Virus record (IMG/VR): IMGVR_UViG_3300023275_000004
Span: 61,619-125,618 of that record
Reading direction: 5' to 3' (one strand)
Length of the DNA: 64,000 bases
Origin: a virus
Taxonomy: Duplodnaviria > Caudoviricetes
Shown here piece by piece: positions 7,339 to 62,026 of this stretch (positions are counted from its first letter, which is position 1; each line of letters starts with the position of its first letter). The notes beneath the pieces are model-generated. The model searched no databases. It was not told the DNA's origin and worked only from the letters and a program-made list of their open reading frames with translations. A program made the translations under genes and the position numbers.

Positions 7339-7386
7339 AAAAAAAGCGCAGGACTCCAACCATAAATACAATCGGGTCCTGCGCTT
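7339..7386 (-). terminator. intrinsic terminator with CCGAT motif in loop
   Basis: 11-bp stem AAGCGCAGGAC/GTCCTGCGCTT followed by T run. Confidence 0.75.
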
Positions 7387-7395
7387 GCCATGTTC

Positions 7396-7746
7396 TTAGT
7401 CTTCGTCAGTACTTCCCTCGTCCTTGAAAGTTATGAGCATCCACTCGTGCTCTAACCCCTCTACTGCCTCAGGCTCTTCATACTGAGCCCTGAATGAGTA
7501 GCCCGCAGCCTCAGCCATACGAATAACCATCTCAGTGTTAGAGACATAGACAGGAACTTCAAACTCATGAACTCCTCCATGAAGGAGCTGCCAAATCATT
7601 CCTACCTGTACGCCCCTAGCAAACTCTGGACTATCCGTGTCGTACTGAAGCATCATGTACGGCTGATCACCAGTATCATCCCAAATACCTCCACTCGGAG
7701 CTTCTTGGGAGTTATTTCCAGGCTCAAGAAAATTTTCATCTAGCAT
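7396..7746 (-). CDS. hypothetical acidic protein
   Basis: ORF track; start trimmed to ATG behind AAGGA. Confidence 0.65.
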   Translation of the reverse strand: MLDENFLEPGNNSQEAPSGGIWDDTGDQPYMMLQYDTDSPEFARGVQVGMIWQLLHGGVHEFEVPVYVSNTEMVIRMAEAAGYSFRAQYEEPEAVEGLEHEWMLITFKDEGSTDED

Positions 7747-8440
7747 TAGCATCCTTAAATGGTATTGGCAGTGACTCCCATACGAAGTAAATGGTATCTC
7801 CAGAATCAAGAACTCTTACCATCTCTTTAGAGAGACTGAAATTACTAGCAAAGGCAGTCTCCTCAGCTTTACGTTGAATAGTTTCCTTGGATAGGCCCGT
7901 AGCTAGAACTAATGGCAGGGACATACGAAGTGTTGGGGTACCCCCAAACTCTGAGGCTGGAAGCCACTTAAATACAATTTTATGCCCGTGTTCTTCCAAC
8001 AGCTTTTCATCCCTCAAAGCTATTTCATTCATTGAACTGGAAGCATCTTTATCAGTAGCAGAGTAGTCACGCATAATTTTTCCTGCGCCAACATAGACTG
8101 ACACTGGAGCGGTAATTAGTCCACCAGTTGCATACTTAGTCTGCTCGGCCTTCTGCTGCTCAGAAACTTCTCTTCCTAGAGCACCGTAGCCAGAAATATC
8201 AATCCAGCTATCTGCCTTGTCAGGAGTCTGAACGAGACGGCTAAGTTTAGTAACTATTTGTATAACTGGTAAATCGTGAGGAGTAAGTAAACGTCCACCA
8301 GGACCGCGATATCCAAGCGCGTTAAGTGCCTCAACAACTTTCGTAAAATTATCAATTGGTTCGCCGTACTCTGTGTTTCTATCATTAGACACTAGGCGCT
8401 TGGCCTCGTCCAAGGCTTGATCTCTTAGGCTGTCAGTCAA
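7736..8440 (-). CDS. DUF6378-like domain protein
   Basis: DRNTEYGEPIDNF...KLSRL...DSWIDISGYG. Confidence 0.75.
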   Translation of the reverse strand: MTDSLRDQALDEAKRLVSNDRNTEYGEPIDNFTKVVEALNALGYRGPGGRLLTPHDLPVIQIVTKLSRLVQTPDKADSWIDISGYGALGREVSEQQKAEQTKYATGGLITAPVSVYVGAGKIMRDYSATDKDASSSMNEIALRDEKLLEEHGHKIVFKWLPASEFGGTPTLRMSLPLVLATGLSKETIQRKAEETAFASNFSLSKEMVRVLDSGDTIYFVWESLPIPFKDANAR

Positions 8441-8442
8441 TT

Positions 8443-9387
8443 TTAACTCCTCGAAATAGTCTGATTACATGTTGGGCATTTTCCTAGCTCTTGAAGCCTA
8501 GTATGCAACTGATCGTGACTTTCTTTTTCTAGCAAACTAGCCTGCTCTAGCGCTTCGTTAGCCTCCTTCTCCGCTTTCAACGCCTTTGCCCAAGCAACTA
8601 CTGAATTCTTAAACTTCACATAATCTAATTGTAGCGCTTCAAGTTCGTCCAAAGAAGGTAGCTCAGGAAGCTCTACCAGAGACGCCAGCACGCCCTCTGA
8701 GTCGATCAGAGACGAGAGAACGCTCCGGAGCTGTCGCTGCCTAGCCTGAAGCTCGGTAGCTTCCTCTAGCGCCTTCTCAGCCTCTTCTAGAGCCTTTTTA
8801 CGGGCGGCTAACTGAGCAAACTTTTTAGCTTCTTCCTTCAACTGATTTAAGTCAGCTTGTCTGGTTTTCAACAAAGAGTTAATAGCTAGCTTTTTCTTAT
8901 TGGCTACTCGAACAGCCTCAAAAATTGAAGAGACGTTAGTAAGATCTCCGAGCACCTTTGCTACCTGCGAAGCAGACTCTCCGAGCAAGTAAGGCTTATC
9001 AAACTGCCCAGCAAAATTTATACTGGCTTCCGTTGTGGTTACCGGCTGAATATTAAGAGTCTCAGTTACTCCCTCAGGAACCTTCTGAGCCAGCTTAGTG
9101 AAAGGCTTCTCTTCTCCAGTAGAGCGATCCACAACGATATATTTCCCAGTCGTAGCCGTCTTCTTCAGAGTAATTATATCATTCTCGATATATAACGAAA
9201 TAGCTAAAGACTTTTCACCAGAAGTTATAACCGATGATCCTCTAATATTGGAAGCCAGCCCCCGCATAGCTCTAAGAAACGCTGACTTACCTGAACTAGA
9301 GGGACCAACGATTACCGTGAATTTCCCTAGCTCAAGATCCAGCTTCTTTAGACTCTGGAAGTTCTGGATCACTACACGTTCTAACAT
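8443..9387 (-). CDS. SbcC/Rad50-like ATPase, N-terminal half ending at Zn hook
   Basis: IQNFQS, Walker A GPSSSGKS, Q-loop, coiled coil, terminal CPTC. Confidence 0.85.
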   Translation of the reverse strand: MLERVVIQNFQSLKKLDLELGKFTVIVGPSSSGKSAFLRAMRGLASNIRGSSVITSGEKSLAISLYIENDIITLKKTATTGKYIVVDRSTGEEKPFTKLAQKVPEGVTETLNIQPVTTTEASINFAGQFDKPYLLGESASQVAKVLGDLTNVSSIFEAVRVANKKKLAINSLLKTRQADLNQLKEEAKKFAQLAARKKALEEAEKALEEATELQARQRQLRSVLSSLIDSEGVLASLVELPELPSLDELEALQLDYVKFKNSVVAWAKALKAEKEANEALEQASLLEKESHDQLHTRLQELGKCPTCNQTISRS

Positions 9388-9469
9388 GAAATCTCCTGGA
9401 AATAAATTTAAGCTAGTAGGATCTCTCCTACTAGCTTAACATTCAACTATGTGCTGAACCTACTTACGA

Positions 9470-9643
9470 TCAGGCATCTTCCTCTGCGTACTGAGTAAAG
9501 TCTCCCAGATCCGCTACGTTGCCCCTACCAGCGTCATCCAATGCCTTAGCGAGCTTCACTCGAAGTTCTGCCTCCTGACGCTTCTGCTCACGAACCTTTC
9601 GAGCTGCGCCCTTACCCATCTTACCTACGAATCGATTTGCCAT
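9470..9643 (-). CDS. hypothetical basic protein (57 aa)
   Basis: MANRFVGKMGKGAARK...; RBS AAGGAG. Confidence 0.6.
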   Translation of the reverse strand: MANRFVGKMGKGAARKVREQKRQEAELRVKLAKALDDAGRGNVADLGDFTQYAEEDA

Positions 9644-9670
9644 GTCAGCTCCTTAGTTAGTTTCCTGAAA

Positions 9671-9904
9671 TCACGTGTTGAGAGATCCACCGAACTGCTT
9701 CACAAAGACTGCTGGTCGCATATGCTTGGCAATCTCAATTTCTCGAAAATCATTACAGCGCCTACAGAAAATAAAATCTCCCTTAAAGCACTGGATCTCG
9801 AAGAGTGTGATATGCCCACACGTCCCTTTAGCCACCCAGTAGACTACTTCTTTACCATTAGTATCTAACTTGGTGTACTTGGGGAGTAACGTCTTGCTTG
9901 CCAT
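9671..9904 (-). CDS. hypothetical Zn-ribbon protein
   Basis: CGH...CRRC. Confidence 0.65.
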   Translation of the reverse strand: MASKTLLPKYTKLDTNGKEVVYWVAKGTCGHITLFEIQCFKGDFIFCRRCNDFREIEIAKHMRPAVFVKQFGGSLNT

Positions 9905-9953
9905 ATGTTCTTCTCTCCTAGTTTAGCATGTGTGTAACTGAGTTTCTAGTGTT

Positions 9954-10145
9954 TTACCAACCTTTTCGCATGGCCGATGCCGCTAAGGTGTTCAAGATAT
10001 TTTCTCTCATCCTAGCGTGAAGTCGAAGCCTTCTCTTAGCGTCAGCAACCGTATTCTGGTCTGCCTCAATTACAGAGTCTAGGCTTTCTAATTCTTCTGC
10101 CAACTCTTCCGCTGTCATACCTTCAAGCGACTTAGCCATAACCAT
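9954..10145 (-). CDS. hypothetical coiled-coil protein
   Basis: 63-aa ORF after promoter, RBS AGGAG. Confidence 0.65.
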   Translation of the reverse strand: MVMAKSLEGMTAEELAEELESLDSVIEADQNTVADAKRRLRLHARMRENILNTLAASAMRKGW

Positions 10146-10174
10146 TCTCCTGTCGGAAGTTGTTCCGTAAGAAG

Positions 10175-10204
10175 ATCATATACTTCTGTAAGTTGAGTTG
10201 TCAA
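10175..10204 (-). promoter_or_regulatory. sigma70-type promoter
   Basis: TTGACA-18bp-TATGAT. Confidence 0.7.
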
Positions 10205-10250
10205 CTACCCGACCCTCTTACGTCTGACATATGAGAAATCGGTTGAGACG

Positions 10251-10287
10251 GAAGGAGGGCCTCCCTAATCTCGGAAGACCCTCCTTC
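10251..10287. terminator. hairpin, probable terminator
   Basis: GAAGGAGGG/CCCTCCTTC stem after the 10301 gene. Confidence 0.5.
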
Positions 10288-10300
10288 TTAAATTTTTATT

Positions 10301-11917: not shown

Positions 11918-11949
11918 TCTACCCTCCTCGGGTTTATTTAAAGATTAAG

Positions 11950-12784: not shown

Positions 12785-12873
12785 AAGCTACTCCTTGATA
12801 GTTAACCTTAGTCAAAGATTTGTCTCTGACCCACATTAAATATCGGATACTAGGAGGTGCTTTTGGACCTTTA

Positions 12874-16557: not shown

Positions 16558-17181
16558 TCAAACAACTGAGTCAATTATGGCAGGAACCTCCGAAGTACCA
16601 TTCCAAACCGAGATATTACCAACCGGAAGTTCAGCAGAACCATTCCATACACTAACAAGTTGACCAGAACTCTCTGGTATAAAATCAATGTCCAGGAAAT
16701 ATCCTCCAGAATTATATTGATCCGTTGGCATTATAGGAGTTACCAATCCAACAGACTGATTATAATCATGAAAGCGACCAGCTTGCGCAATAGCTGTAAT
16801 GTGTCCGTTAGTATAGTTTACTGGAAAATAACCCGGAGAAGCTGTATACCTATCAGTTACTACAGAGAAAATATAGTCTTCGTCAGCATTAATGTTCCAT
16901 CCTGTAACTGCATAGTGATTCCATTCACCTAAGAATAAATCATCAAACTGAGCTGTTGCAATAACAGTAGAAGTAGCTACTCGCCATAACTGAGCTTTAA
17001 TAGGAATAACATCATGATTTAATGTACCTGGATAATTATTGGGCATACGCCAATGTACCTGAGGTATACTCCCTGCAACATCAGAACGAAACCGTGTTCC
17101 TATACAATAAGTTGTATTATCCGAGGCGTCATCTGATACTGGCTGGTCAGCGCCAAAAATTAACCCGCCTACATTAGCCAT
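16558..17181 (-). CDS. DUF4082-like domain protein (probable virion accessory)
   Basis: IGTRFRSDVAG...YFLDIDF motifs. Confidence 0.65.
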   Translation of the reverse strand: MANVGGLIFGADQPVSDDASDNTTYCIGTRFRSDVAGSIPQVHWRMPNNYPGTLNHDVIPIKAQLWRVATSTVIATAQFDDLFLGEWNHYAVTGWNINADEDYIFSVVTDRYTASPGYFPVNYTNGHITAIAQAGRFHDYNQSVGLVTPIMPTDQYNSGGYFLDIDFIPESSGQLVSVWNGSAELPVGNISVWNGTSEVPAIIDSVV

Positions 17182-18176
17182 TACGACAACCTCACAATTA
17201 CAGTGCCTGCGCGTGTTCCTCCTGGAACTGGAGCACCCGAGGCTAACACTAGAACGTCAACCTTAGCATCCAGGGCTGCTTGTTGAGCCGTACTTACAGG
17301 CTTAGCGGAATCCGCAGTATTATCTACATTTCCTAGCCCAACGTGAGCCTTAGTAATACCTGTTGGCGTTCCAGTAAAGATTGGACTCACTAAAGTTTTA
17401 TTTGACAGTGTAGCTGAAGCAGAATTTTTTGTGCTATCACTAGTGTTGTCAACATTTCCCAGACCTACGTGAGTTTTTGTTACGCCAACTACCGTGCCGG
17501 TAAACGTTGGATTAGCTAGCGGAGCTTTCAAAGAAACTGCTGTGGTCATAGAAGCTAAATCCTCAGTAAGGTCCACGATCTGATTCTGATTAAGAGTCAC
17601 CGTATCAGTACCACCACTAGAATGGGTAGCTGCGTGAGTTGTAGACGCTGCCCCTATAGCTGCGGCAGTAGGTAGTGCAGGAGTACCGTGTGAGTGGTCA
17701 TTTCTGGCGTACTTAGTTCCTACTCCTACAACACTCGACTGACCATAAGAAGTTCCTGAAACCACTGTAGTAGCTGGATCTGCTCCACTGCCTCCGCCTT
17801 CGTGAGTATGATTGTAGGGCGCATAGAGATTGCCGCTTGAAGGCCCTACAGGGAGCAAGTGAGAAAGCTCTAGAATGCCCTCTGAAACGTCATAAGGCAC
17901 CATCGCTGAAAAGGTATAGACACTTTCAGAAAGGCGTAGATGAACTTCATAGGTCCAAGTTGAAGGAGACCATTCAGGATCATTGGTAGCTGGTACCTGA
18001 ATAGCCACTGATCCATCGGGGCCAAGAGTTGCCTTGAGTAAGCTAGGAACCATCACAGTCGCATCTTCAGAAGACAACGAAAAAACTTTTGAACGAAAAT
18101 AGACGGTACCCTCTTCAGGAGTACCGTCAAGCTTTAGATATGTGCCCTGAACTGTGATTAAGGTAGGACGAGTCAT
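17181..18176 (-). CDS. tail fibre-like protein, paralogue of 14500..16509
   Basis: closely similar N-terminus PTLITVxGTYLKLDGTPE, same repeats. Confidence 0.75.
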   Translation of the reverse strand: MTRPTLITVQGTYLKLDGTPEEGTVYFRSKVFSLSSEDATVMVPSLLKATLGPDGSVAIQVPATNDPEWSPSTWTYEVHLRLSESVYTFSAMVPYDVSEGILELSHLLPVGPSSGNLYAPYNHTHEGGGSGADPATTVVSGTSYGQSSVVGVGTKYARNDHSHGTPALPTAAAIGAASTTHAATHSSGGTDTVTLNQNQIVDLTEDLASMTTAVSLKAPLANPTFTGTVVGVTKTHVGLGNVDNTSDSTKNSASATLSNKTLVSPIFTGTPTGITKAHVGLGNVDNTADSAKPVSTAQQAALDAKVDVLVLASGAPVPGGTRAGTVIVRLS

Positions 18177-18188
18177 GGCAAAAGCCTA

Positions 18189-18233
18189 TCTTCTGGAGCT
18201 GACTGTATCCTTAATACTATCGGCTCCAGAAGA
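18189..18233 (-). promoter_or_regulatory. hairpin containing CCGAT motif upstream of fibre operon
   Basis: TCTTCTGGAGC/GCTCCAGAAGA 11-bp stem, GCCGATAG at start of loop. Confidence 0.65.
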
Positions 18234-18235
18234 CA

Positions 18236-18673
18236 TCACTTTCTGAGATCGTCCCACTTAGGTGTGTATGGCTTCCATAGAAGTTTCATACCCGCCTCAG
18301 CAGGAGTCTTGTTATCTTTCTTACTGTTGCACTTATGGCAAGCAGCAACAGTGTTCTTCCAAGCATTCTTTCCACCACGCGAACGTGGAAGTACGTGGTC
18401 GATCGTTGTAGCTTTTGACTCACAGTACGCACACAGGTTATTATCCCTGCGCATTACTCCACCTTTGGTCCACTTAGGGGAGCGGTTGTAACGCCACGAT
18501 GTTACAACGTACTGAATTAGGCGAAGAACCCTAGGCTTCGGGAACACACCCATTAAGTCATCCTCCGCTTCGTGAATAACCGCAACCTTACGTACGATCA
18601 TCCGGATAGCGTGCTTGAGATCGACTGAATGGAGTGGCACGAAGTCTGCGTTTAAAACCATTACAGAAGTCAT
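18236..18673 (-). CDS. HNH endonuclease
   Basis: RDNNLCAYC, TIDHVLPRSRGG, CHKCNSKK. Confidence 0.9.
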   Translation of the reverse strand: MTSVMVLNADFVPLHSVDLKHAIRMIVRKVAVIHEAEDDLMGVFPKPRVLRLIQYVVTSWRYNRSPKWTKGGVMRRDNNLCAYCESKATTIDHVLPRSRGGKNAWKNTVAACHKCNSKKDNKTPAEAGMKLLWKPYTPKWDDLRK

Positions 18674-18906
18674 TCTACCCTCCATCTTTTATAATTATTG
18701 AAATTTTGTGAGCTACTAAGATAGTATCCTGAATCTTAGTAGGGTCTGACTATAACTTAGGACCGCTTCGCCTATCAGTCTCGGCTAGGCTGCCGCTATT
18801 ACACCATCGTTGAGTGGGGGCATTGAGCATATAATCATCACATCAGTAGGTCCAGCCGTCACCGCTAGGTGTTTAGGAAATTTTCCTAAGATCACGACCT
18901 ACTACG

Positions 18907-19703: not shown

Positions 19704-19732
19704 ATATTACTAGATAAATCGGCCCGTGTCAA
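19704..19732 (-). promoter_or_regulatory. sigma70-type promoter with nested GCCGAT motif
   Basis: TTGACA-17bp-TAATAT; CCGAT at 19718-19722. Confidence 0.6.
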
Positions 19733-22769: not shown

Positions 22770-22920
22770 AAATTTCCTTCCGGCTTTTAGAGTTGCCTAT
22801 GAGTTATCGGCAAGAAACAAACCTTACAATCTTAAGCCTAGCAGAGAAAAATAAGCCCTCAAACTCTCTGATTTACAGAGAATTCAAAGGCTTGTTTATG
22901 CTGCTTAGAGGCTCATTACG

Positions 22921-24374: not shown

Positions 24375-24641
24375 GTCCTGAAGTTCTTTCTTGGCTTGAT
24401 TAACGCCTTCACGAATCATGGCTAGGAACTTCTCCATGTCATCAAAGCTTAGCATAATCGGCCCGTTCATTGCAAGGTGAACATTCTTACCAATCGTACT
24501 AGACCACTTAGCATCTCTAGTGTAGTGCCTGTAATCGTATCCGTCAAGCCCTACGACTACAAGAACGTTAGCGTACCTGGAGTCTATACTGAACGTAGCC
24601 TGTGGAGGCTTACCCTTTTTACGAACAATCTTGATGTCCAT
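24366..24641 (-). CDS. hypothetical protein
   Basis: 91 aa, RBS GGAGG. Confidence 0.7.
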   Translation of the reverse strand: MDIKIVRKKGKPPQATFSIDSRYANVLVVVGLDGYDYRHYTRDAKWSSTIGKNVHLAMNGPIMLSFDDMEKFLAMIREGVNQAKKELQDLT

Positions 24642-36305: not shown

Positions 36306-36411
36306 CCCTTCAGGTAACTCTGACCCGGTAATACTTCTACTCTAGACCTTCGGGTTACTTTAAGCAAGCTTACAGGTTTCCCCGCGATCACTAAATAAAT
36401 CGGGTTGTTAA

Positions 36412-37603: not shown

Positions 37604-37652
37604 CGTACTCTCCTAACTGTTGTAACTACTATCTAAATGATCGGTTTTGAGT

Positions 37653-39523: not shown

Positions 39524-39951
39524 CAGTTAACTCCTGTAGATCCGTGCCCACCAGTTCCACGCTCAGTGGAAACTAGGGTCTCTGCTTTCACGAATTTAGC
39601 TCTAATAACCTCTTGAATTACTAACTGTGCAATTCTATCGCCAGCCAAAACTGTAAAAGACTCTTCTCCATGGTTGATCAAGTTGATTTTAACTTCTCCC
39701 CGGTACCCAGAGTCTATAGTTCCAGGAGCATTCAACACAGTAATACCACTCTTAGCAGCTAACCCTGATCTAGGATGAATTAGACCCACAAAACCCACAG
39801 GAATTGCTAAAGCAATTCCCGTTCCAATTAATTTACGCTCACCTGGAAAGATAATTACATTTTCCACAGAATACAAATCAGCTCCAGCATCACCAAAGTG
39901 AGCGTAACTAGGTAGCTTAGCCTCACTGGTAAGTAACTCAACCTCAACCAT
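39523..39951 (-). CDS. dut: dUTPase
   Basis: AGADL, PRSGLA, GTIDSGYRGE, DRIAQ, RGTGGHGSTG. Confidence 0.97.
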   Translation of the reverse strand: MVEVELLTSEAKLPSYAHFGDAGADLYSVENVIIFPGERKLIGTGIALAIPVGFVGLIHPRSGLAAKSGITVLNAPGTIDSGYRGEVKINLINHGEESFTVLAGDRIAQLVIQEVIRAKFVKAETLVSTERGTGGHGSTGVN

Positions 39952-40645
39952 CTACTTGCTCCTTAGCGATTACAACCATTGCTTCCCGAATAGCTAGCAC
40001 TGCCTTAGTATGCAAATGAGAAGCACGAGCATCCGTGATATTCAGCTCGGCTGCGATCACCTTTAACTCTTTTTTCTCAAAATAATGCATAGCTAAGACT
40101 AATTGATACTCAAACGGAAGCTCTCTTATAGCTTCAACTGTAGCAGCCCGTACGTCTTGCTCAAAGATCGTACCCTCAAGAGACTGATCATCTTCGCAAT
40201 CGATGCTGGCAGCCTGCAAACTTACCGGCTTAGCTGCCATACGAGCCATAGTCTTAGTGACCTCCTGCTCAGACATTCCTGTACGCTCTGCCATCTCAGA
40301 AACCGAAGCTCCATTATCCTGGCCAGCATCCTTTAGCTGACGAGACTTACCTCTCATAGTACGAGTAGTCCAGTCATTCTGCCTAATAGCATCAAAAATA
40401 GCGCCTCTAATCCTATTAGAGGCGTAGACCTTAAAATAGTTATAAGCTTTAGAGTCATAGCCATTTTTGTCACAATAGGGACGCCAACGAGCTGCGGCCT
40501 GAGTAAGCCCAAGGTAGGCTAAAGATCGCAGCTCGTCAATTTCTAAAGCATGAGGAGCTGTCTTCCACACATTAACAGAGATGGCTTCAGCCATCCCAAT
40601 ATTGTCTTGGATGAGGGTGACTAGCTCTTTATCCATTGTTTCCAT
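39944..40645 (-). CDS. FliA/WhiG (sigma28)-family RNA polymerase sigma factor
   Basis: YASNRIRGAIFDAIRQNDW..R..R (region 2.3-2.4), region 4 LKVIAAELNITDARASHLHTKA. Confidence 0.85.
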   Translation of the reverse strand: METMDKELVTLIQDNIGMAEAISVNVWKTAPHALEIDELRSLAYLGLTQAAARWRPYCDKNGYDSKAYNYFKVYASNRIRGAIFDAIRQNDWTTRTMRGKSRQLKDAGQDNGASVSEMAERTGMSEQEVTKTMARMAAKPVSLQAASIDCEDDQSLEGTIFEQDVRAATVEAIRELPFEYQLVLAMHYFEKKELKVIAAELNITDARASHLHTKAVLAIREAMVVIAKEQVDG

Positions 40646-42291: not shown

Positions 42292-42552
42292 CTACGCAAG
42301 GGAAGGGTCTAGCCCTAACGAGAAGGAGACTTCAGCTTCTTCTTCTGCCTTGCGAGCTTCCAAGCGTGTACGCCAAACGCGACGCTTAGACTCGATTGTA
42401 GCAGCCGCACGTGCCATATCAATAGAGTACGCTGTGTCACGACTAAACGCTACCAACGCCTCACTGACTAGATCAGTATAGGCTACCAAATCAACTGCTG
42501 CAAGAACATCTCCCCGACGACTGGATCGTCTCCCTCTCGTTTTGGCTTCCAT
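42292..42552 (-). CDS. hypothetical protein
   Basis: 86-aa ORF. Confidence 0.55.
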   Translation of the reverse strand: MEAKTRGRRSSRRGDVLAAVDLVAYTDLVSEALVAFSRDTAYSIDMARAAATIESKRRVWRTRLEARKAEEEAEVSFSLGLDPSLA

Positions 42553-44261: not shown

Positions 44262-47200
44262 TTACTTCACATAAACAATCGTCAGTACAGGTTCGCTAGA
44301 CTGACCATTTCCATTGAACTTTCCATACTGGTCGTGCGAATCATTAGTAGGTCCAACAATGATTCCTCTAGATGCTCCAGATTTAAACTCATTACCAATT
44401 GTGGTACCAAGGCTTACTTTCCTCTTACCAGGCTTAGGCCATCCACCAGAAGATACTCTTTGTACGTGCAAATTTCCGCTGCTGATAGAACTTGGGCGAC
44501 TTGAATACTTATGAGTACCAATCCTTGCGGTACCACCATTATTATCCCACCAGTGATTCGCATAAAGAGTGATATAGCAAGACTTTATAGTAGCTCCTGA
44601 CAGATCCTTACGAATTTGAGCATCGTTAAATCCTACTAGTCCACGGGCATCTCCTAGGTAACCATCTCCAGAATTACCTTGTGTCATAGTTGCACCATGA
44701 GATGACGAGTATGCTCCGTTAGATCTATACGAACCAGACCACGTAGCTGAATAATTCTTAGTATAAGTAACCTTAGGCTTTGGCTTAGAAGGAGTAGGAG
44801 TATCAACGCTTGGCGGTGGAGCTAGATACTCTGAGACACCAGCGTCATTAAGAATAAGCGTGTCAGTCACTGGCATACCAATATCTTCAACCCACATCAA
44901 AGAAACTGACTCTGGACCAGCTCCACCAGGAGCCTGCACAGAAGCATTTCCATTAATTCCGAAGAAAGACACAAGAATTCTATGAAGCCCCGGCGTGAAG
45001 GTTCCAGCGTAAGTGATAATGGCTGCGGAGTTTCCTCCTGAATTAGCTACGTCACTACAAATAGCTTGCTGAAGCCAAGTTCCAGAAATTGTTGGATCTT
45101 GGTCTCCAGAATCTCGAAGTCTCAGCACGATACGGTCCTGGCTAGCTGTAGACTCCCACTCAGTCATAGCTACGATCATGTAGCTTCTTGACTCTTCCGC
45201 AATGAAGCTGATTTCCATGAATCCGCGCTCACCAGCGACAGTAGGACCTCCTCCAATGATGGCATCACCATCATATGTCCCTAGGGCGATAACACCTTTA
45301 GCCCTAGGATTAATGATATCGTCTAGAAGACTATCTCCTCCAATAGTGATATCATCTACTACATAAAGATTCTGGAATGATCCTCTTCCGCTACCATCAA
45401 TTCCGGCAAGGGTCTTAGTACTGTCTTCAGGGTCCTTGATAAGGAGGAAGTTTCCCTCAAGCCCTGGTGAACCTACAAGGCTCACTGTTGGGTCGCCGTC
45501 ATCAGTGTAGATTCTGAACCCTTCAGAATCCATTTCAGCACGTGCACCATGCTCAGCGGTACGAATGATTCCAGCAAGAACAATAGCTGAACTAATAGTT
45601 CCAGCAGTAATCTTCGTAGCTGTTAGATCACTAATATGTGCATCGTCAATAAGATTAACTGAAGCTGTCACTGGAGGAGAGCCTGCTGAACGATTTCCTG
45701 TACGATCAACAGCAACTACGCTAACCCATACACCCTCAGTATCTTCAATCTGAAAGGTACCAATGGCAGGAATCTGACCACGCATCATGCTCAAGTTGGC
45801 AGGAAGCTTTCCAACACGAGTTTCTTCGCTTGGGAAAAATTCTGGTCCTCCAACGTGTACCTCAAAGTGGTCCATATCCTCAGGAAGATTAAAGGTTCCT
45901 CCTGAAAGCCTTCCCATACTGTGTGTGATCTGAATAGCCAGACGACTTGAGGCAATCAAGGGAGGCGCTGGCGTTGGTGGAGCAATAGTATCCTGCGCAG
46001 CAGTCACTAGAACTGACTCTGACCACTCTGACCAGTGCTGAGGAGTCGAAGAATCTACAGCCCTCACTTGGAATTCGTAAGTAACACCAGGAGTCAATTC
46101 TTGGATAAGAGTCGAATTGTCATCAAAACCAACGTACATTGTCTGCCAACCAGCATTTGTGATAGGCGGAATCGTAGGCTGAGCCCAAGTCTGTAGCTCA
46201 TCCCAAGTTAGTTGTGAAGCCTGTAGCCAAGTGGCCTTGTACGGAGAAGTAGTATCAGCACGAAATCTTACTTCAAAGTGGTGACCATCAGAAATTGTAG
46301 ATCCGTCAACATTTGTAGGGGTTGTCCAAGTAAGCTGAATCTGAGCCTTAGTCCAGATATCTTCGCCTGACTGATAGGTGGTAGTGAAACTATCAGTAAT
46401 TTCAGGAACACCAGGAATAGACTTGTCTCCTGGCTGAACTGCTGACCAGAATCCTCCAGCTGCATTGTAAGTAAGAACGTCTCCGTCTTGTGGCTGGCTA
46501 AGAGTCACATCCAGTAGAGATGATAGTCGTGCCTGCTGAAGGACCGTCGCGGCGGTTACAGGGTTGTTAATGGCTACACCAGCAGAGTTAGACGAACCAC
46601 CAAGCTTTTCAATCTGAAACTTTAGACGCTCCGCAAGTAGTTGTAGGCGTGACTGAAGAGTCAGTTCAAGATCAGTGTTTCCTTCATCGTCCACACTGAT
46701 AGCAATACCTACTACCTTCCAAGCATCAATATTTCCTGTTTCTGGATTCTCAATGCCAATCCAGTCCCCTACCCCATAGTCAATAAACACTCTACGACCA
46801 GGCTGATCTGGATCTACCTTGATTCTCCAGGAACTTGTTTCATCCTTAACTGATTCAAGAGTAGCACCAATAATAGAACCAGTAGCTCCTAGATCCCCGG
46901 TTTGCCCCGCGCTAACAAAAAGCTCTCTCCTTTGAAATTTCTCAATTGAGACATCATCTTTAACTACGGCATAGTCTCCAACAGCATTCTTTCCCACAAT
47001 AAAGTTCGCCACGTCTTCTCGGGTACGTGTACGTTCTCTAAAGAGCTGAGATCCAAATTCATGAAACACTACAGAGGATTCTCTATGGAACTGAAGTGTA
47101 GGGTCAGCATCCTCTTCCAGCCACACTTTCTGTCGAATATCAAGTGAAAAGTCTGGGTTCATGTGCCAACTAGCTTGCTGTGCATCAGCAAAAGCCTGAA

Positions 47201-57228: not shown

Positions 57229-57319
57229 CGCGATACACCTCAAATAAGTCGTGCCGATAAGTCATTAATCATATCGGCGTTTGATGACGATTACTCTATT
57301 TTTACCAGCTAATCGAGAC

Positions 57320-57538
57320 TTACATTATCTCGACAGTCTGGACATGCTCACCCAGAATGTTATATCTGTGCAAAACTCTGCGTACTGATCGGCCCTGCTG
57401 TCTAGCCTCACGGGCACAATCACTGCACGCAAGCTCCATCAATACGCCTTCAACATAATTTATCGGCTGACCTTGCAAACGCAGAAATAATTTTCTGAAT
57501 CCAACTGGACAGCGAATCTCAGTTACCTGATCCACCAC
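57320..57538 (-). CDS. small Cys-containing hypothetical protein
   Basis: RCP...CSDC; RBS GAGGAGG. Confidence 0.6.
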   Translation of the reverse strand: MVDQVTEIRCPVGFRKLFLRLQGQPINYVEGVLMELACSDCAREARQQGRSVRRVLHRYNILGEHVQTVEIM

Positions 57539-58646
57539 TAACCTCCTCACACATACGAGCCTTAGCCAGCAGGTTCTCTCCCTTTTCGGGAACAGCTTTT
57601 GCAAGCTTCAGGAAAAGTTTTTCCACTACTGAATCCCAGCTACACATCTGTGGAAGAGTCTTAGAAGCAAGTAATGCCTTTTCCTTCACTTCTGTGCGAT
57701 TCTTATATGTGTGCATCAGCAATTCTTTAAGGTGATCCTTGCTAGCTCTAGCCTGCTTGCAATTTGGCAAGCTCGGACTAAGAGGCATCAACGTATAATC
57801 CAGCGGATATGCATACGAAGGAGAGAGCCAGTTCGCCATTCCTCCCCAGTTCGTTGCAATGACAGCCCCACCCGTGGTCTGGAACTCTAACGCTGGCATA
57901 TTCTTTCCCTCCCCCCTGCTCGGAGCTAGAAGAACATGCTGCATACCGTAAAATTTCCTGAGAATTTCCACGGGCCACACCGAAGAATGAACTCTTAGTT
58001 TGGGACACCACTGCTCCATGGCTGGATGAAGACCTGGAATATTAGTTTTAAGATGAAGTTCTGCTCCATCAAAATCCTTTGGATACTCAGTTTTTAGTTC
58101 ATGAAAAGCCTGGATAGCTACAAATGGATCTTTTCTATCGTGAAGTTGGCCCACCATACAAAAGCCGAACCTGTCGCTGTACCAATCACGCTCCATATAC
58201 TTCCAGTCAGAAGGCTCATATCCTCCTTGAAGTACAAAAGAAGCAGTCTTCTTTGGAAGGTATTTTTCAAAAGCCTCAGTAGTTACAGCATCGTAGCCAA
58301 TGAAAGCATCAAAATCCTGCAAATTACCTTTTAGTCTCGACCTTCCCTTTAAATTATCAAGGGAAGAATACTCCCACATGGACATTGAAACTGTCAGATC
58401 CGAAGCAGCTCTAAGTTCCTTATCAATACCTATCTGTCCAGGATCAACGTGCTGGATAGTTAGATCAAAGGGAGCTTCCAGCTGCTTAGTGAAAAGCATC
58501 GCAATATCTTTAGGGAGTGGAGCTGCTACGTGAGTAGCTTGCAAATAAACATCTGCACCCATACGCATAAGCGCACGAGTAAGCCCAATACCATCATTTC
58601 CGTACCCTGAGAATTTACTCATGGGCGCAGATAGTAAAACTTTCAT
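57519..58646 (-). CDS. GT-B (family 4-like) glycosyltransferase
   Basis: SGYG, RKD, PSRGEGKNMPALE...G..VIAT.WGG. Confidence 0.88.
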   Translation of the reverse strand: MKVLLSAPMSKFSGYGNDGIGLTRALMRMGADVYLQATHVAAPLPKDIAMLFTKQLEAPFDLTIQHVDPGQIGIDKELRAASDLTVSMSMWEYSSLDNLKGRSRLKGNLQDFDAFIGYDAVTTEAFEKYLPKKTASFVLQGGYEPSDWKYMERDWYSDRFGFCMVGQLHDRKDPFVAIQAFHELKTEYPKDFDGAELHLKTNIPGLHPAMEQWCPKLRVHSSVWPVEILRKFYGMQHVLLAPSRGEGKNMPALEFQTTGGAVIATNWGGMANWLSPSYAYPLDYTLMPLSPSLPNCKQARASKDHLKELLMHTYKNRTEVKEKALLASKTLPQMCSWDSVVEKLFLKLAKAVPEKGENLLAKARMCEEVSGGSGN

Positions 58647-58670
58647 TTGGCCTCCAAGGCTCTAAAAAGC

Positions 58671-59159
58671 TTATCCGATCTCTACGCCATAAATTTGCGT
58701 TCCTATGACTACACCATTTCCATCAGGAGTTTTATAATCGTCATAACCACCAAATCTACGGCTCGTTACGGATCTAATACTGCCCCACCACTGCTCGCCG
58801 CCGCGCACTCTGTGCAGGTATTTATCTACCACTCGATAAACAGCCCTGGCTCTACGAAAAGTCTCAGAATCCTCGACAATAGTTACCCCATCTGCTCTTC
58901 TAATAGGCCCCGCCCAAATTTGGATGCCTAATCTTTCAAACGATGCAGTATTGTAGTCGTTAGGTGATCCCCATGGCCCGGCAGAAGTAACTACGATAGC
59001 TACTTTATCTGTCTTTTCCATGTTGAAAGGCATATCTCTCTGAAAAATCCAGGGAACATCATCATCAAATTTTCCTACTAGAGCAACAATCTCTGGAATG
59101 CTTAGAAGATATCCTGCGGCACCCGATACTAGGTCGTCATCTGTCACTGGCGTTGTCAT
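58671..59159 (-). CDS. tail terminator protein (putative)
   Basis: size and synteny. Confidence 0.6.
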   Translation of the reverse strand: MTTPVTDDDLVSGAAGYLLSIPEIVALVGKFDDDVPWIFQRDMPFNMEKTDKVAIVVTSAGPWGSPNDYNTASFERLGIQIWAGPIRRADGVTIVEDSETFRRARAVYRVVDKYLHRVRGGEQWWGSIRSVTSRRFGGYDDYKTPDGNGVVIGTQIYGVEIG

Positions 59160-59533
59160 GCGTACTTTCCTTTCAGCCAGGACTCCAGAGCGTCGCCATA
59201 GCGAGAATCAAGAGTATAGATAGGCTCCATATAATCATGAAGTCCGTCACGTTCCTGTTCGTAGTGAGCGTACTTAACTGGATCGTGAATAGCGGCAGGA
59301 GCTACACCACCATAGGTAATTTCCCCTTGCCACTTATTTAGATCGATAGTGCTTTTCAACTTTCCTGAAAGTTTTAGCGAACCTGTACGAATGTGAACTA
59401 TCTGCTGAGTAATTTGAAACTGGGAGGCCAGCACAGACTCAAACTCCATAACGTCTGGAATACTTGGCCCATCAATTAGCCTATCTAGTTCCTTCTCTAC
59501 ATCAGAGATATCCACTTCAATGTAAACAGCCAT
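59156..59533 (-). CDS. neck/tail completion protein (HK97 gp10-like)
   Basis: VHIRTGSLKLS and YAHYE motifs. Confidence 0.65.
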   Translation of the reverse strand: MAVYIEVDISDVEKELDRLIDGPSIPDVMEFESVLASQFQITQQIVHIRTGSLKLSGKLKSTIDLNKWQGEITYGGVAPAAIHDPVKYAHYEQERDGLHDYMEPIYTLDSRYGDALESWLKGKYA

Positions 59534-59961
59534 CAGGCACCTTCTACAACTGAGCTGGGAAATCTAACTGCGGAGGGAGCAACTTCAACTACTTGTACTT
59601 CTAGGTGATGAACAGCAGAAAAATCTACTGCTCCGTCAGGAGTTGCTTTAAGTTCAAAAGTTCCTGTGATTGGACCAGAAATCATCTTGATCCTGTCCCC
59701 GGCAAGTAGATATGGAGTAGCATCGCAAAAAAGTACGCCTACTCGGTCAATCGCTCTACCAGCTACCAATGCCGAAGGCTGATCTTTTCCAGGACGTACA
59801 AAGTTAAGGTCCAGACGGCACATCATTTCACCGACAACGCCTAGCCTAGTGTCTACAATTTCGTTCAACTTGAACCAGTCAGTAATAGCTGATCCTTTTA
59901 CGAAAGAGACAGAAAGCCTCTGAACCTCTGCACGCGAACTGTAAAGATGCCTGATTGACAT
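59533..59961 (-). CDS. head-to-tail stopper (putative)
   Basis: AGDRI and HHLEV motifs, synteny. Confidence 0.65.
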   Translation of the reverse strand: MSIRHLYSSRAEVQRLSVSFVKGSAITDWFKLNEIVDTRLGVVGEMMCRLDLNFVRPGKDQPSALVAGRAIDRVGVLFCDATPYLLAGDRIKMISGPITGTFELKATPDGAVDFSAVHHLEVQVVEVAPSAVRFPSSVVEGA

Positions 59962-60482
59962 TAGCCTCTCTTTTCAGTATTTGCGTAATAATAGTCGTTC
60001 AGAGGATCGTTCATTGGGAAGTCCTTAGGACCAAGAACAAAGCGGTCGCCTTCAGAGTTCTGGTAGTAATTCTCTCTCTCAAATAGAGAGATAGAAGATG
60101 AGTTAACATCAAATACACCATCAGATGCACTCAGCTGTTCAACTGCTAGATCAAACCACATGCTTCCTGTCGACTCGCCATTTCTAGCCGCAGAAGCACT
60201 CTTGCTGTAAGAATACGAACCAATCGTCTCGGAACTAAAAGGCTTAGCCAAAATTTCATCGTAAGGTGACTCAAGATAAATTTTATTAGCCAAGTCCATA
60301 ATCGCATATTTAGCAAGGCTGGCGTCTGGATCGTCTGTGGGCATCTCTGACAGTCCTGTGCGGATAGCCAGTAGAAGCGCAGCCTGCATCAAAGCCTGCT
60401 CTGCAAAAGAAGAGTAGAAACTCTCAGGCTTGCCTGTAAATGTGGCAAGTTCAGCCACAGACGGAACCAGAAGCATTGTCAT
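59961..60482 (-). CDS. head-to-tail adaptor
   Basis: SETIGSYSYS motif. Confidence 0.75.
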   Translation of the reverse strand: MTMLLVPSVAELATFTGKPESFYSSFAEQALMQAALLLAIRTGLSEMPTDDPDASLAKYAIMDLANKIYLESPYDEILAKPFSSETIGSYSYSKSASAARNGESTGSMWFDLAVEQLSASDGVFDVNSSSISLFERENYYQNSEGDRFVLGPKDFPMNDPLNDYYYANTEKRG

Positions 60483-60489
60483 TTCCTAA

Positions 60490-60966
60490 TCAGCTAGAAA
60501 TTCTTGGAGCTGCACGCCCGCGACGACGCTCAGCCTTAGCGGCCTGCTCTTCTTCCCACTCCTTGCCCTTCCAAGGTCCCTGACGGTAGTAGTGAGCTCC
60601 GTAGAACTCTTCCTGCTCAGTGGAATCCAGAAGTGCCCACTTCTTTGCTGCATCGTACTGTGGAGTGCCTGGCTCAAGCTCAAGCTCCTGGCCCTTATAC
60701 CAAACCGTACCTAGTTCGCAGAATCCATCACGGATGAAGTGGATGAGAATATTCTTTTCGTCGCCAGGATTGGCAACTACGTCATGCTCAAGCTCTGGGT
60801 CCTTAGCGCCTAGAGACTTAGCTAGCTGATCCTTAAGATCTCTAATCTCTCTTTGCTCTGGAGTAAGCTCCTCTTCAGGAGTTACAACAGTTTCCTCGGG
60901 TGCGCTCGTAGCGGGAGCTGCTACCCTTGGAGCGACCTTTTTTGCTGGTGGACGACCGGTAGTCAT
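60490..60966 (-). CDS. hypothetical protein, first gene of connector operon
   Basis: ORF downstream of CCGAT motif at 61014-61018. Confidence 0.7.
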   Translation of the reverse strand: MTTGRPPAKKVAPRVAAPATSAPEETVVTPEEELTPEQREIRDLKDQLAKSLGAKDPELEHDVVANPGDEKNILIHFIRDGFCELGTVWYKGQELELEPGTPQYDAAKKWALLDSTEQEEFYGAHYYRQGPWKGKEWEEEQAAKAERRRGRAAPRISS

Positions 60967-61045
60967 GTGACTCACCGTACCTTTCACAATAGTAGATTAT
61001 CCCTACTATTACCATCGGTCGTGCCACTAGCTAAGGCCCGAAATG

Positions 61046-61498
61046 TTACTTGTCTTCGTGACGAAGTGCTCTCAATTGATCAGCTACCTTAGTAAGCTCC
61101 TGCTCTAGTATACGAAGCTTATCCTCAAGCTCATCAATCTTTTCATCACGAACTCTGATCTTTTCCTTAAGAACATCGTTATCTGTTCTCACCCTATCCA
61201 GATCAGCTCTATATCTATCCGCTTCCTCACGAGCCGCTTTTGCTGCCTGTTCCATCATCAAAACGGCTGATTGAGCACCGGTTACAATAATTACATCTTT
61301 TTCCGCTGGTGCCTTAATAGCTGCTACATCCTTAACTTCCTTTGCGTCTCTACGCTCTTTTATAAATTTCAAAAGAGTTACAAGACCTAGAGTTACACTA
61401 AGAATGAATCCACCTACGGTTAAGTATCTTTCAACACTCCAACCTTCAGGCTTCTTTGCTACTTCAGCCGCCCAGAAGTATAGCTCAGGAGCGATCAT
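61046..61498 (-). CDS. membrane-anchored coiled-coil protein
   Basis: single N-terminal TM then heptad repeats. Confidence 0.75.
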   Translation of the reverse strand: MIAPELYFWAAEVAKKPEGWSVERYLTVGGFILSVTLGLVTLLKFIKERRDAKEVKDVAAIKAPAEKDVIIVTGAQSAVLMMEQAAKAAREEADRYRADLDRVRTDNDVLKEKIRVRDEKIDELEDKLRILEQELTKVADQLRALRHEDK

Positions 61499-61949
61499 CG
61501 TCTATCCCCTCCTGAGTCCTGCTCAATGTCTGAGCATAGCTATACGCCTTTGCAAGCTTGCCCAGCTCCCTGTATCTCACTGCACAAGAAATACTAAACA
61601 ATGCAAAAGTAAGCACTGTTAAATATCTACCACTACCGGCTCCGTTTGTTGCTAGCGCAAGTGCGTAAGTTCCTGTGCCGAAAGATAAAAATAGAAGACC
61701 GATCTGCTCGATCCTCATCGAATACCACATAGGCCACACAAGACCTACCAGAGTTGTCAAACCCCCGAATACCAATGAAATTCCCCACCACATAATTACT
61801 ATGACAGGAAATGCCTGCTTAACCGACTCTGGTGCAAACTCATCAGGATTGATCAGAATTGGTAAACCTGTAATAACAGCCAGGTAGGCCAGGAAAGCAG
61901 TTGTGGATTCGAGGCTCAGCGCTCTCAAAGTTCTTGTAAACTTGCGCAT
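61485..61949 (-). CDS. 4-TM membrane protein (holin-like)
   Basis: four hydrophobic segments; start at ATG 61949. Confidence 0.7.
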   Translation of the reverse strand: MRKFTRTLRALSLESTTAFLAYLAVITGLPILINPDEFAPESVKQAFPVIVIMWWGISLVFGGLTTLVGLVWPMWYSMRIEQIGLLFLSFGTGTYALALATNGAGSGRYLTVLTFALFSISCAVRYRELGKLAKAYSYAQTLSRTQEGIDDDRS

Positions 61950-61955
61950 AGCAAA

Positions 61956-62026
61956 ACCCACCTATCCAGACGTAAATGACACTTAAAACATCGGCATTGT
62001 TTGCCGTAGTGTCTGGATAGGTGGGT
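61956..62026 (-). promoter_or_regulatory. 16-bp RBS-sequestering hairpin with GCCGAT motif in loop
   Basis: ACCCACCTATCCAGAC/GTCTGGATAGGTGGGT; 3' arm ends 6 nt before ATG. Confidence 0.75.

Follow-up and report, generated by a model that had tools for sequence, protein, structure and literature searches.

Does a five-letter word that recurs between the genes of a phage mark a second class of promoters, and what is the role of the hairpins in which part of its copies are embedded? The question was raised by a preliminary description of the window, a stretch of 64,000 nucleotides from the 125-kb genome of an uncultured phage, in which CCGAT followed by an AT-rich run had been recorded at eleven places on the minus strand. 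This observation is confirmed: 11 of the 11 sites are present, all of them are situated in non-coding DNA and an A/T-rich run was found at each. The boxes were studied in this genome (G0) and in relatives, including three (G1, G2 and G3) with about 50% protein identity. ORF calls are our own, with the longest ORF taken. The features of the window are as follows.

5252..5256, minus strand: CCGAT roughly 20 nt upstream of tRNA-Met; it overlaps both spacer and -10 of a TTGACA-N17-TAGTAT promoter
7371..7375, minus strand: CCGAT box situated high in the 5' arm of an intrinsic terminator
7338..7386, minus strand: terminator composed of a 19-bp hairpin (7344-7386) and a U7 tract (7338-7343), directly 3' of a 137-aa gene
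12842..12846, minus strand: CCGAT box 58 nt ahead of a 106-aa gene
18219..18223, minus strand: CCGAT box between HNH endonuclease and tail-fibre genes; a long hairpin has it at the top of its 5' arm
18180..18243, minus strand: hairpin GAAAGU..GUCUUCUGGAGC...GCUCCAGAAGAU..GCUUUU (-32.0 kcal/mol, z -6.7)
19718..19722, minus strand: CCGAT within the spacer of a TTGACA-N17-TAATAT promoter, in a hairpin 5' arm
22806..22810, minus strand: GCCGATAA box 41 nt ahead of the ribonucleotide reductase small-subunit gene
36399..36403, minus strand: CCGAT box 9 nt past a 134-aa gene, with about 400 nt downstream that hold no long ORF
37640..37644, minus strand: CCGAT box 41 nt ahead of a 66-aa gene, after a DnaB-like helicase gene
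39944..40645, minus strand: phage sigma factor of 233 aa, group 3, FliA/WhiG-like by NCBIfam, Pfam and PDB matches
44278..44282, minus strand: one-mismatch variant GACGAT, a candidate only, 35 nt ahead of the ATG of a 103-aa gene
57273..57277, minus strand: GCCGAT box 34 nt ahead of a 190-aa gene (phrog_36442)
61014..61018, minus strand: CCGAT box 31 nt ahead of a 165-aa gene, without a straddling hairpin (z -0.9)
61990..61994, minus strand: CCGAT box 33 nt ahead of the ATG of a 158-aa gene, located in a hairpin loop of 39 nt above a 15-bp stem
61958..62024, minus strand: hairpin CCCACCUAUCCAGAC...GUCUGGAUAGGUGGG followed by UUUUGCU-AUG (-31.9 kcal/mol, z -5.9)

Over the whole window CCGAT is not enriched (62 copies seen, 65.2 expected). 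Within the complete genome, 19 of 73 minus-strand copies fall into the intergenic 12.4%, as against 6 of 48 plus-strand copies. Enrichment was assessed on intergenic DNA, where all 1024 pentamers were compared with an order-1 Markov expectation, and CCGAT was found to be enriched on the coding strand in G0 to G3. The G0 count is 19 versus 6.3 expected (rank 3 of 1024), the sense-strand ranks in G0, G1, G2 and G3 are 3, 3, 4 and 2, respectively, and in the pooled genomes (63 versus 20.2 expected) only TTGAC, the host-type -35 word, ranks higher. The distance from box to start codon is mostly 31-47 nt (47 nt to the tail-fibre ATG at 18219), and 33 of 62 intergenic boxes are located 28-60 nt ahead of a start codon, compared with an expected 20.7% (p 2e-8; since the relatives' sites are partly orthologous, p-values here overstate independence).

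Equivalent gene junctions carry boxes across these genomes of about 50% identity, with unrelated flanks. The 190-aa gene behind the box at 57273 is encoded upstream of the tape-measure gene, and its orthologues in G1, G2 and G3 (185-192 aa) are also preceded by a box, again in unrelated flanks; the position of the 37640 box is kept in G2 and G3; and a counterpart of 61990 is found just past the same 'exonuclease' gene in all relatives. At the junction of the 44278 variant, after a large tail protein gene, the relatives carry a CCGAT box. Taken together, these comparisons support CCGAT as a selected, strand-specific and position-constrained intergenic signal.

Strand specificity and a fixed distance to the start codon are also expected of an RNA-level signal, such as a 5'-leader site at which RNA is processed or bound by a phage or host RNA-binding protein. 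We regard this as very unlikely, because the structural context of CCGAU varies between loop, 5' arm, complete pairing and no structure, no Rfam family overlapping it was found and the flanks are promoter-like. In a frequency matrix of 34 sites, T occupies the equivalent of -7 in 19 and a purine the equivalent of +1 in 28, with an A/T-rich discriminator; position -1 is never C and is G in 16.

The promoters of bacterial sigma-28 factors (FliA/SigD/WhiG) have the form TAAA-N15-GCCGATAA, and the geometry of the box fits a sigma-28 element from -15 to -8. Both share the (G)CCGAT core with A/T behind it, A at the inferred -11 and T at the inferred -7, and, some 8 nt past the element, a purine. In the P. 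aeruginosa fliC promoter, GCCGATAA likewise extends from -15 to -8 (PMC12784957), and the 34-site matrix agrees with it. The phage boxes differ in that AA after GCCGAT is only weakly preferred and that a TAAA-type -35 is missing: like the preliminary description, our renewed search at the boxes found no consistent -35 and no TAAA-type element at any spacing, yet the sigma factor possesses region 4. Recognition by sigma-28 has been reported to be firm for the -10 and weak for the -35 (bioRxiv 10.1101/2020.01.02.893370).

That the phage encodes a sigma factor of the FliA/WhiG family, as had been proposed, is borne out by its best NCBIfam and PDB matches. TIGR02479 (FliA_WhiG) is matched over the full profile (E 7e-30) with 104 bits, a score below the curated cut-off of 189.6 bits; Pfam recognizes regions 3 and 4, and those PDB matches which are named as a sigma family are all FliA, the best being E. 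coli 6PMI (E 8e-16). The putative cognate sigma is closest to FliA proteins, and residues of regions 2.4/3.0 are largely retained. The segment YAxxRIRGAxxDxxRxxDWxxRxxR is conserved. Seven E. coli FliA residues which we took as -10-contacting were compared: equivalents of D81, R84, R91, R94 and R98 are retained (5/7), those of R34 and R95 are missing.

Since the box fits the bacterial sigma-28 consensus beyond a phage-specific word, and no clear host-type promoter was found upstream of the phage sigma gene, the boxes might be genuine sigma-28-type promoters read by a host FliA, SigD or WhiG, the phage sigma having another specificity or acting as a supplement. We consider this improbable. The sigma is encoded in nine of nine relatives searched with contigs at least 43% complete, the phage protein retains most of the FliA -10-contacting residues, and the bacterial TAAA is absent. 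Moreover, the motif of distant relatives shifts from CCGAT to nCGATAGTA together with the sigma sequence. On the sense strand, the related word CGATAG is enriched in three of five such relatives, and G6, with S at the R91 position, has boxes without C before CGAT. We therefore favour the phage FliA-like sigma as the reader of a second class of -10 elements, about a third of them nested in hairpins that locally begun RNAs would escape; on sequence evidence we hold this combined reading to be probable, with moderate confidence.

The hairpins were evaluated at ten window sites by folding the strand against 200 shuffles per site. The folds divide the sites just as the preliminary description had listed them, being strong at 7371, 18219, 61990 and 12842 (z -4.2 to -6.7) and marginal at 19718 and 57273; no significant structure was found at 22806, 37640, 61014 and 36399, four of the ten sites folded. 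At 7371 the fold (-27.6 kcal/mol, z -6.3) is followed by U7, and the real start of the gene behind this terminator is likely the ATG at 7282. In the 12842 hairpin (12785-12862; -25.3 kcal/mol, z -4.2) an upstream anti-Shine-Dalgarno CUCCU pairs with the Shine-Dalgarno (SD) AGGAG across the box. The 3' arm at 19718 holds the SD of a 65-aa gene (z -2.7), and the 61958..62024 hairpin is terminator-like with the SD (AGGUGG) in its 3' arm.

At 57273 the structure is a small GCCGAU/AUCGGC hairpin (z -2.05). Perfect CCGAT...ATCGG palindromes occur here, at the relatives' portal site, at G3 28420 and at G2 54535, as would suit operator half-sites for a phage DNA-binding regulator, for instance as inverted repeats CTCCTGCCGAT-N13-ATCGGCAGGAG. 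To this proposal we give the least credence of all, as most sites have a single box without a partner and the variable hairpin arms covary like RNA helices and present no fixed binding sequence.

In all strong hairpins the predicted start lies in the loop (as at +14 in 18180..18243) or at the very beginning of the 3' arm, so that RNA begun locally would lack the 5' arm. Folding across the predicted start averages -16.6 kcal/mol, compared with -11.3 in control leaders (p 4e-5), and 29% of boxes versus 10% of control leaders reach -20 kcal/mol or below. Two conserved hairpins of the relatives hide the SD or the start codon, and one of the two covaries. Before the portal gene, an anti-SD pairs with the SD; in the glycosyltransferase leader (eight relatives), the box region pairs with codons 1-6, compensatory changes occur in 6 of 16 pairs, 92% of cells are paired and none of 500 shuffles matches. 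When the relatives' leaders are cut at the predicted start, folding falls from -20 to -28 kcal/mol to -5 to -9 kcal/mol. G0 has no box before its own glycosyltransferase gene.

Some of these structures are plainly of another kind. The hairpins at 7371 and at G0 genome position 17588 are textbook stem and U-tract terminators, several boxes have a downstream hairpin or none, and leaders of the TTGAC type also fold (-13.7 kcal/mol on average, with 19% reaching -20 or lower). It is conceivable, albeit rather unlikely in our view, that the hairpins serve as ordinary terminators and as stabilizers of 5' leaders and overlap the boxes because the genome is compact, with no silencing and no timing role. 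The portal and glycosyltransferase hairpins, with anti-SD/SD pairing in the former and covariation in the latter, have no U-tract behind them, and the loops of box hairpins, at 13-39 nt, are unusually long for terminators and just fit the distance from -10 to start. For the preferred reading, in which read-through RNA is silenced and local starts escape, geometry and the relatives' covariation speak in favour, whereas its general form is overstated: with a classical terminator at 7371 and a terminator-like hairpin with SD at 61990, not all hairpins are pure RBS silencers. Furthermore, at G0 genome position 24414 and at some relatives' sites a hairpin (12 bp at 24414) is located wholly downstream of the box, and a complete terminator follows the box after the relatives' 'exonuclease' gene; at 24414 and the 'exonuclease' site, locally begun RNAs would carry both arms.

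The genes behind the boxes did not correspond to the proposed restriction to lysis and virion genes. Ribonucleotide reductase (small subunit, 22806), a 66-aa gene that precedes primase (37640) and tRNA-Met (5252) also have sites ahead of them, and behind none of the sites was a lysis gene identified. Near-consensus TTGACA-N17-TAnnnT promoters overlap two of the sites, 5252 and 19718; 5252 is probably of host type, which makes its promoter class ambiguous, and the class of 19718 is ambiguous as well. The structural and replication zone of G0 contains 10 CCGAT boxes and one sigma70-like promoter, the small-gene zone two boxes and 15 sigma70-like promoters (Fisher p 5e-5), and G1 to G3 show the same partition.

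The interpretation given in the preliminary description is hence partly supported, and we infer the following scheme of reader, start sites, timing and hairpin effect. Host-type TTGACA-N17-TAnnnT promoters would serve the small-gene and tRNA region, and (G)CCGAT -10 elements, read by host core RNA polymerase with the phage FliA/sigma-28-like sigma, the structural and replication modules, a class that would be middle-plus-late and not purely late. By sigma-28 geometry, transcription would start about 14 nt past the first C of the box and yield a leader of 20-35 nt with a Shine-Dalgarno. At the roughly one third of sites with a nested box, this start would lie in the loop or right where the 3' arm begins. 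Read-through RNA with both arms would be terminated at 7371, at genome position 17588 and probably at 61990; at 12842, 19718 and 61990, as in the portal and glycosyltransferase leaders of relatives, its SD or start codon would be locked. RNA begun at the box would lack the 5' arm and escape.

Phage sigma cascades are exemplified by gp28 and gp33/34 of SPO1 and by gp36 of phiEco32 and 7-11. There, as is proposed here, early promoters for the host sigma are followed by promoters for a phage sigma and two classes partition the genome; the sigma lineage and promoter consensus differ, and the class described here includes both replication and structural genes. From bacterial sigma-28 systems the phage is set apart by a phage-encoded sigma below the family cut-off and by putative virion and replication targets in place of flagellar genes.

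For the hairpins the closest parallel is T4, where the late promoters of genes e, soc, 49 and I-TevI, read by a phage-specified sigma, lie in DNA encoding the 5' strand of a hairpin that hides SD or AUG; folding keeps the long transcripts silent, and local ones lack the 5' strand (PMC3014915). This geometry recurs at 12842, 19718 and 61990 and, in relatives, ahead of the portal and glycosyltransferase genes. Here the sigma is FliA-like with regions 2-4, in contrast to the minimal gp55, the promoter word is CCGAT and not TATAAATA, and the design, known from sequence, appears at many junctions as against few. In addition, true terminators form part of it, and local starts would escape from termination as well as from a translational block. 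If the hairpin-nested boxes are promoters, they would represent a broader application of a device familiar from T4.

The record is a single-contig virus of 125,618 bp, of which the window forms the second half. The minus strand carries nearly all genes, and 37 tRNA genes are present in the genome. No near-identical phage DNA was found in the reference collection; the closest named phage by protein, Microbacterium phage Magritte, is yet distant. Genes were defined by simple longest-ORF calls. The blocks of the window, in the order of transcription, and three single features are as follows.

Block 1: "exonuclease"-like gene, small structural genes and group-1 glycosyltransferase
Block 2: tape-measure protein and a 1507-aa tail protein
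Block 3 (replication): SNF2 helicase, sigma factor, dUTPase, DnaB-like helicase, primase-like protein and DNA polymerase
Block 4: ribonucleotide reductase (RNR), HNH endonuclease, tail fibres and tRNA clusters
57519-58646, minus strand: group-1 glycosyltransferase gene within the structural module
18236-18685, minus strand: HNH homing-type endonuclease gene, directly upstream of the tail-fibre gene at 17181-18176, with the strong 18219 hairpin between them
5791-5874, minus strand, 84 nt: Rfam match to tmRNA (54.8 bits, cut-off 47); ARAGORN places a tRNA with anticodon CTA at the same position

The eleven minus-strand CCGAT sites which the preliminary description had listed were all recovered (5252, 7371, 12842, 18219, 19718, 22806, 36399, 37640, 57273, 61014 and 61990). 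Counted over the whole window the pentamer is not enriched, with 62 copies against 65 expected, and the signal becomes visible only after splitting by strand and coding status. Across the whole genome, in which intergenic DNA accounts for 12.4%, 19 of 73 coding-strand copies are intergenic compared with 6 of 48 on the other strand. Under an order-1 Markov background these 19 intergenic copies stand against 6.3 expected. A maximal-order background was dropped, because the sub-words CCGA and CGAT belong to the motif and the signal was thereby masked. A de novo search of intergenic DNA with our own EM motif finder returned nothing but the ribosome-binding site. The order-1 word count ranked CCGAT third of 1024 pentamers, after TTGAC and AAAAT. 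A position weight matrix built from the relatives was too weak beyond the core for a reliable detection of non-CCGAT sites and was set aside.

Homologues of the "exonuclease" with 48-52% identity were found in eleven IMG/VR contigs, ten of which contain repeated intergenic CCGAT. Three of these relatives were fetched, namely G1, which is complete (135,654 bp, with terminal repeats), and G2 and G3, which are large but partial. In the same pentamer test CCGAT ranked third, fourth and second in G1, G2 and G3, respectively. Pooled over the four genomes, CCGAT occurs 63 times against 20.2 expected and only TTGAC is ahead of it (116 against 40.5); the host-type -35 hexamer and CCGAT are therefore the two dominant words of the intergenic DNA of this clade. 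The boxes are also placed non-randomly, 33 of 62 lying 28-60 nt ahead of a start codon, mostly 31-47 nt (20.7% expected, p 2e-8), although such statistics overstate independence, since the sites of the relatives are partly orthologous and the genes are longest-ORF calls. Boxes recur at five junctions.

Before the portal-like gene
Before the 351-383-aa head gene
Immediately after the "exonuclease" gene
Ahead of the gene of 185-192 aa that lies upstream of the tape measure
Between the DnaB-like gene and the 66-68-aa gene

The portal gene is common to at least 98 related contigs. At shared junctions the flanking bases are unrelated, so that purifying selection acts on the box as such; the motif is genuine and selected.

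For the determination of its architecture we aligned 34 sites located 25-60 nt ahead of a gene; CCGAT is invariant in them by site selection. The base before the box is G in 16 sites, A in 12 and C in none, and an A/T-rich, G/C-poor stretch extends from the box out to +13, counted from its first C. T is preferred at +7 (19/34), and +14, the predicted start, is a purine in 28 of the 34 and never C. The fliC promoter of P. aeruginosa is numbered (-15)GCCGATAA(-8) (PMC12784957). Transferred to this numbering, the A of CCGAT becomes the flipped -11 base, +7 corresponds to -7 and +14 to the transcription start. The boxes agree with the sigma-28 -10 sequence GCCGATAA, as judged by the base preferences at the 34 sites and by pentamer ranks of 2-4 of 1024 in four genomes, and fit a sigma-28 -10 element in both sequence and geometry, transcription being predicted to begin at +14, about 8 nt beyond the element. 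A TAAA-type -35 element about 15 nt upstream is not seen, the information content between -45 and -5 never exceeding 0.26 bit at the 34 sites. Nor is any -35 word enriched, the best 4-mer (AGAA, 10/34) failing correction for multiple tests, so that word enrichment and per-position information both lead to the same outcome as the preliminary description, which had found no consistent -35 element. According to cryo-EM of E. coli sigma-28, recognition of the -10 element is firm and that of the -35 element weak (bioRxiv 10.1101/2020.01.02.893370).

The phage encodes a sigma factor of 233 aa (39944-40645, minus strand) whose top profile is TIGR02479 FliA_WhiG (E 6.9e-30; profile positions 7-223 of 224; 104.4 bits against a cut-off of 189.6). 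It possesses the sigma2-sigma3-sigma4 domain set without region 1.1 or the non-conserved region, and Pfam matches cover regions 3 and 4. Every PDB match that carries a sigma-family name is a FliA. Alignment with E. coli FliA (6PMI) covers residues 29-222, with regions 2.3 to 3.0 among them, and the segment of region 2.4/3.0 is almost intact. Among the equivalents of the contacts to the -10 or extended -10 element (E. coli numbering) D81, R84, R91, R94 and R98 are kept, whereas R34 is replaced by T and R95 by G. D81 is a -10-contacting residue, as Koo et al. reportedly described in 2009. Contact residues of E. coli FliA are R34, R84, R94, R95 and R98 (bioRxiv 10.1101/2020.01.02.893370); the role of the R91 equivalent is taken from R97 of the P. 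aeruginosa protein (PMC12784957), and we infer that these two residues correspond. In its simplest interpretation the box would be the -10 element of promoters read by this FliA-like sigma factor. Literature searches yielded no paper on phage FliA-like sigma factors with CCGAT promoters or on promoters in terminator loops, which does not prove that there is none.

Comparison with sigma70-like sites, defined as intergenic TTGACA with at most one mismatch, a spacer of 16-18 nt and TAnnnT, revealed a complementary distribution within the genome.

Structural plus replication zone: 3180 intergenic bp, 10 CCGAT boxes, 1 sigma70-like site
Small-gene zone: 8152 intergenic bp, 2 CCGAT boxes, 15 sigma70-like sites

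The zones differ significantly (Fisher p 5e-5) and the complementary pattern is repeated in G1-G3. The box class is therefore to be described as "everything but the early small genes" and not as "late only". Specificity for lysis and virion genes is not supported: boxes also precede the gene of the RNR small subunit, a small gene ahead of the primase and tRNA-Met. On the virion side the boxes of the window precede a tail-fibre gene and probable tail genes; no lysis gene was identified among the genes around the window sites. The word AGTAATA appears to be the preferred -10 of host-type promoters (TAGTAATAT); genome-wide it is strongly intergenic and strand-specific, intergenic DNA holding 12 of its 17 copies but only 1 from the opposite strand. 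Two boxes, those at 5252 and 19718, fall within near-consensus TTGACA-N17-TAnnnT promoters and may hence mark host-type or dual promoters. For the sigma gene no convincing host-type promoter was found, a consensus scan of 36-45 kb remaining at chance level with matches no commoner than in shuffled sequence. Upstream of the SNF2-sigma-dUTPase genes there is just one good sigma70-like site, a possible candidate for the entry point of first sigma expression.

42395-42422, minus strand: candidate promoter TTGATA-16-TACAAT with TG, inside an 86-aa ORF

According to the preliminary description, several boxes lie in the loop or 5' arm of inverted repeats. Folding against shuffled controls bore this out, with four strong hairpins, marginal ones at 19718 and 57273 and four other sites unstructured. 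The hairpins with assignable features, including one outside the window (numbered on the whole record), are the following.

7371, minus strand: 19-bp stem, -27.6 kcal/mol, z -6.3, followed by U7; box in the upper 5' arm; textbook terminator
12842, minus strand: upstream CUCCU pairs with the Shine-Dalgarno sequence (SD) AGGAG across the box; z -4.2
18219, minus strand: -32.0 kcal/mol, z -6.7; box at the top of the 5' arm; U-run paired, hence an atypical terminator
19718, minus strand: 3' arm UAAGGAGG sequesters the downstream SD; marginal
61990, minus strand: 15-bp stem, -31.9 kcal/mol, z -5.9; box in the 39-nt loop; downstream SD (AGGUGG) in the 3' arm, then UUUUGCU-AUG
Genome 17588, outside the window: 7-bp stem, 19-nt loop that opens with the box; UUUAU and SD follow

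A G+C-rich stem directly before a U-tract, as in intrinsic terminators, is found at 7371, genome 17588 and 61990. Sequestration of the SD or start codon is seen at 12842, 19718 and 61990 and in relatives, and thus not at all sites. A leaderless start at 7363 was set aside, because a better SD-plus-ATG is located at 7282. Rfam contains no known RNA family at any CCGAT site. Long-range duplex energies had a high background and discriminated weakly (p 0.04); a local-hairpin search was used instead. The best hairpin straddling the predicted start has a mean of -16.6 kcal/mol at the 34 sites versus -11.3 kcal/mol at box-free control leaders (p 4e-5), and the mean at TTGAC-type leaders is -13.7 kcal/mol. 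No strong hairpin has a 3' arm beginning before +13, so that an RNA started at the predicted +14 would be without the 5' arm. Loops of 13-39 nt, unusually long, would be expected if they needed to hold the distance from -10 element to start.

Two arrangements of this kind are conserved in relatives. The leader of the portal-like gene in seven distinct relatives consists of CTCCTGCCGAT, a loop of 13-14 nt and then ATCGGCAGGAG(G); the SD is locked by an anti-SD, the box lies in the 5' arm, and in one relative a C-G pair has become T-A by a compensating change. In the glycosyltransferase leader of eight relatives, CGAT and the next 12 nt form a 16-bp helix with the start codon and the first five or six codons. 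Both sides are changed in six of the 16 pairs; paired cells make up 92%, versus 28-47% when the partner is slid, and this covariation was reached in none of 500 shuffles. When the leader is cut at the predicted start, only -5 to -9 kcal/mol remain of a fold of -20 to -28 kcal/mol. Both leaders resemble T4 in the logic of the hairpin, promoters in hairpins being documented for the T4 genes e, soc, 49 and I-TevI (PMC3014915). In the phage under study the box before the glycosyltransferase gene is missing, and only the variant GACGAT is present at the junction that follows the large tail protein.

Some boxes do not conform to this scheme. In G1-G3 a complete terminator stands about 25 nt downstream of the box that comes after the "exonuclease" gene (G1 112942, G2 orig 94243, G3 orig 69285), and genome 24414 has a 12-bp stem (41-nt loop), likewise within about 25 nt, that lies wholly downstream of the box. 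RNAs started at such boxes would keep both arms, pointing to attenuation or to a short RNA. Boxes with a downstream terminator would give an RNA of about 50 nt or an attenuated leader, outside the explanation by escape from a hairpin.

Homologues of the sigma factor share 44-48% identity in G1-G4 and 29-33% in five more distant complete genomes of the portal clade. In three of these five (G6, G8 and G10) CCGAT is replaced by CGATAG(TA) as the enriched sense-strand word. The boxes of G6 have G in place of C before CGAT, and in its sigma factor the R91 position, the reader of the extended -10, is occupied by serine. As a single case this pair is no more than a hint, but it is what co-evolution of sigma factor and promoter would look like. 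G6 also contains GGCGTATACATAGACC, repeated exactly 16 nt ahead of several ATG codons. In G8, between 52.6 and 87.9 kb, a composite of about 45 nt (GGTTGCAATTGCAATCT..TAGACTCAAA..GTAAGGTCA) is repeated before a dozen genes and looks like an operator-plus-promoter cassette.

Judged from sequence and predicted folds, about a third of these putative promoters would be nested in terminators or translation-blocking helices. Such nesting would let locally started RNAs escape the terminator or the translational block. The design would be a variation of known ones, the sigma cascades of phages and the promoter-in-hairpin control of T4, here in an uncultured clade. More tentatively, and with the balance of probability somewhat against it, nesting may be a general wiring rule of this environmental clade of about 120-150-kb phages: promoters of both classes, for the host sigma and the phage FliA-like sigma, would be embedded, by loop or 5' arm, in terminators and in helices that sequester an SD or AUG, termination, silence or expression of the RNA at each junction would depend on nothing but which sigma is used, and a -10-only CGAT code would co-evolve with sigma region 3.0.

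If correct, the transcription programme of a widespread uncultured phage clade would become readable, with early genes under host-type promoters and with replication and virion genes under a sigma-28-like CGAT code that uses the -10 alone. The drift between CCGAT and nCGATAGTA alongside the changed residue that reads the extended -10 would offer a natural data set on the evolution of sigma specificity, and the small sigma factor, the 8-nt promoter core and the terminator-embedded promoters might serve as orthogonal expression tools. The T4 trick of a promoter inside a silencing hairpin would then hold for an unrelated sigma family and also cover terminators, and neighbouring transcription units would be compactly insulated, read-through RNA being kept unproductive.
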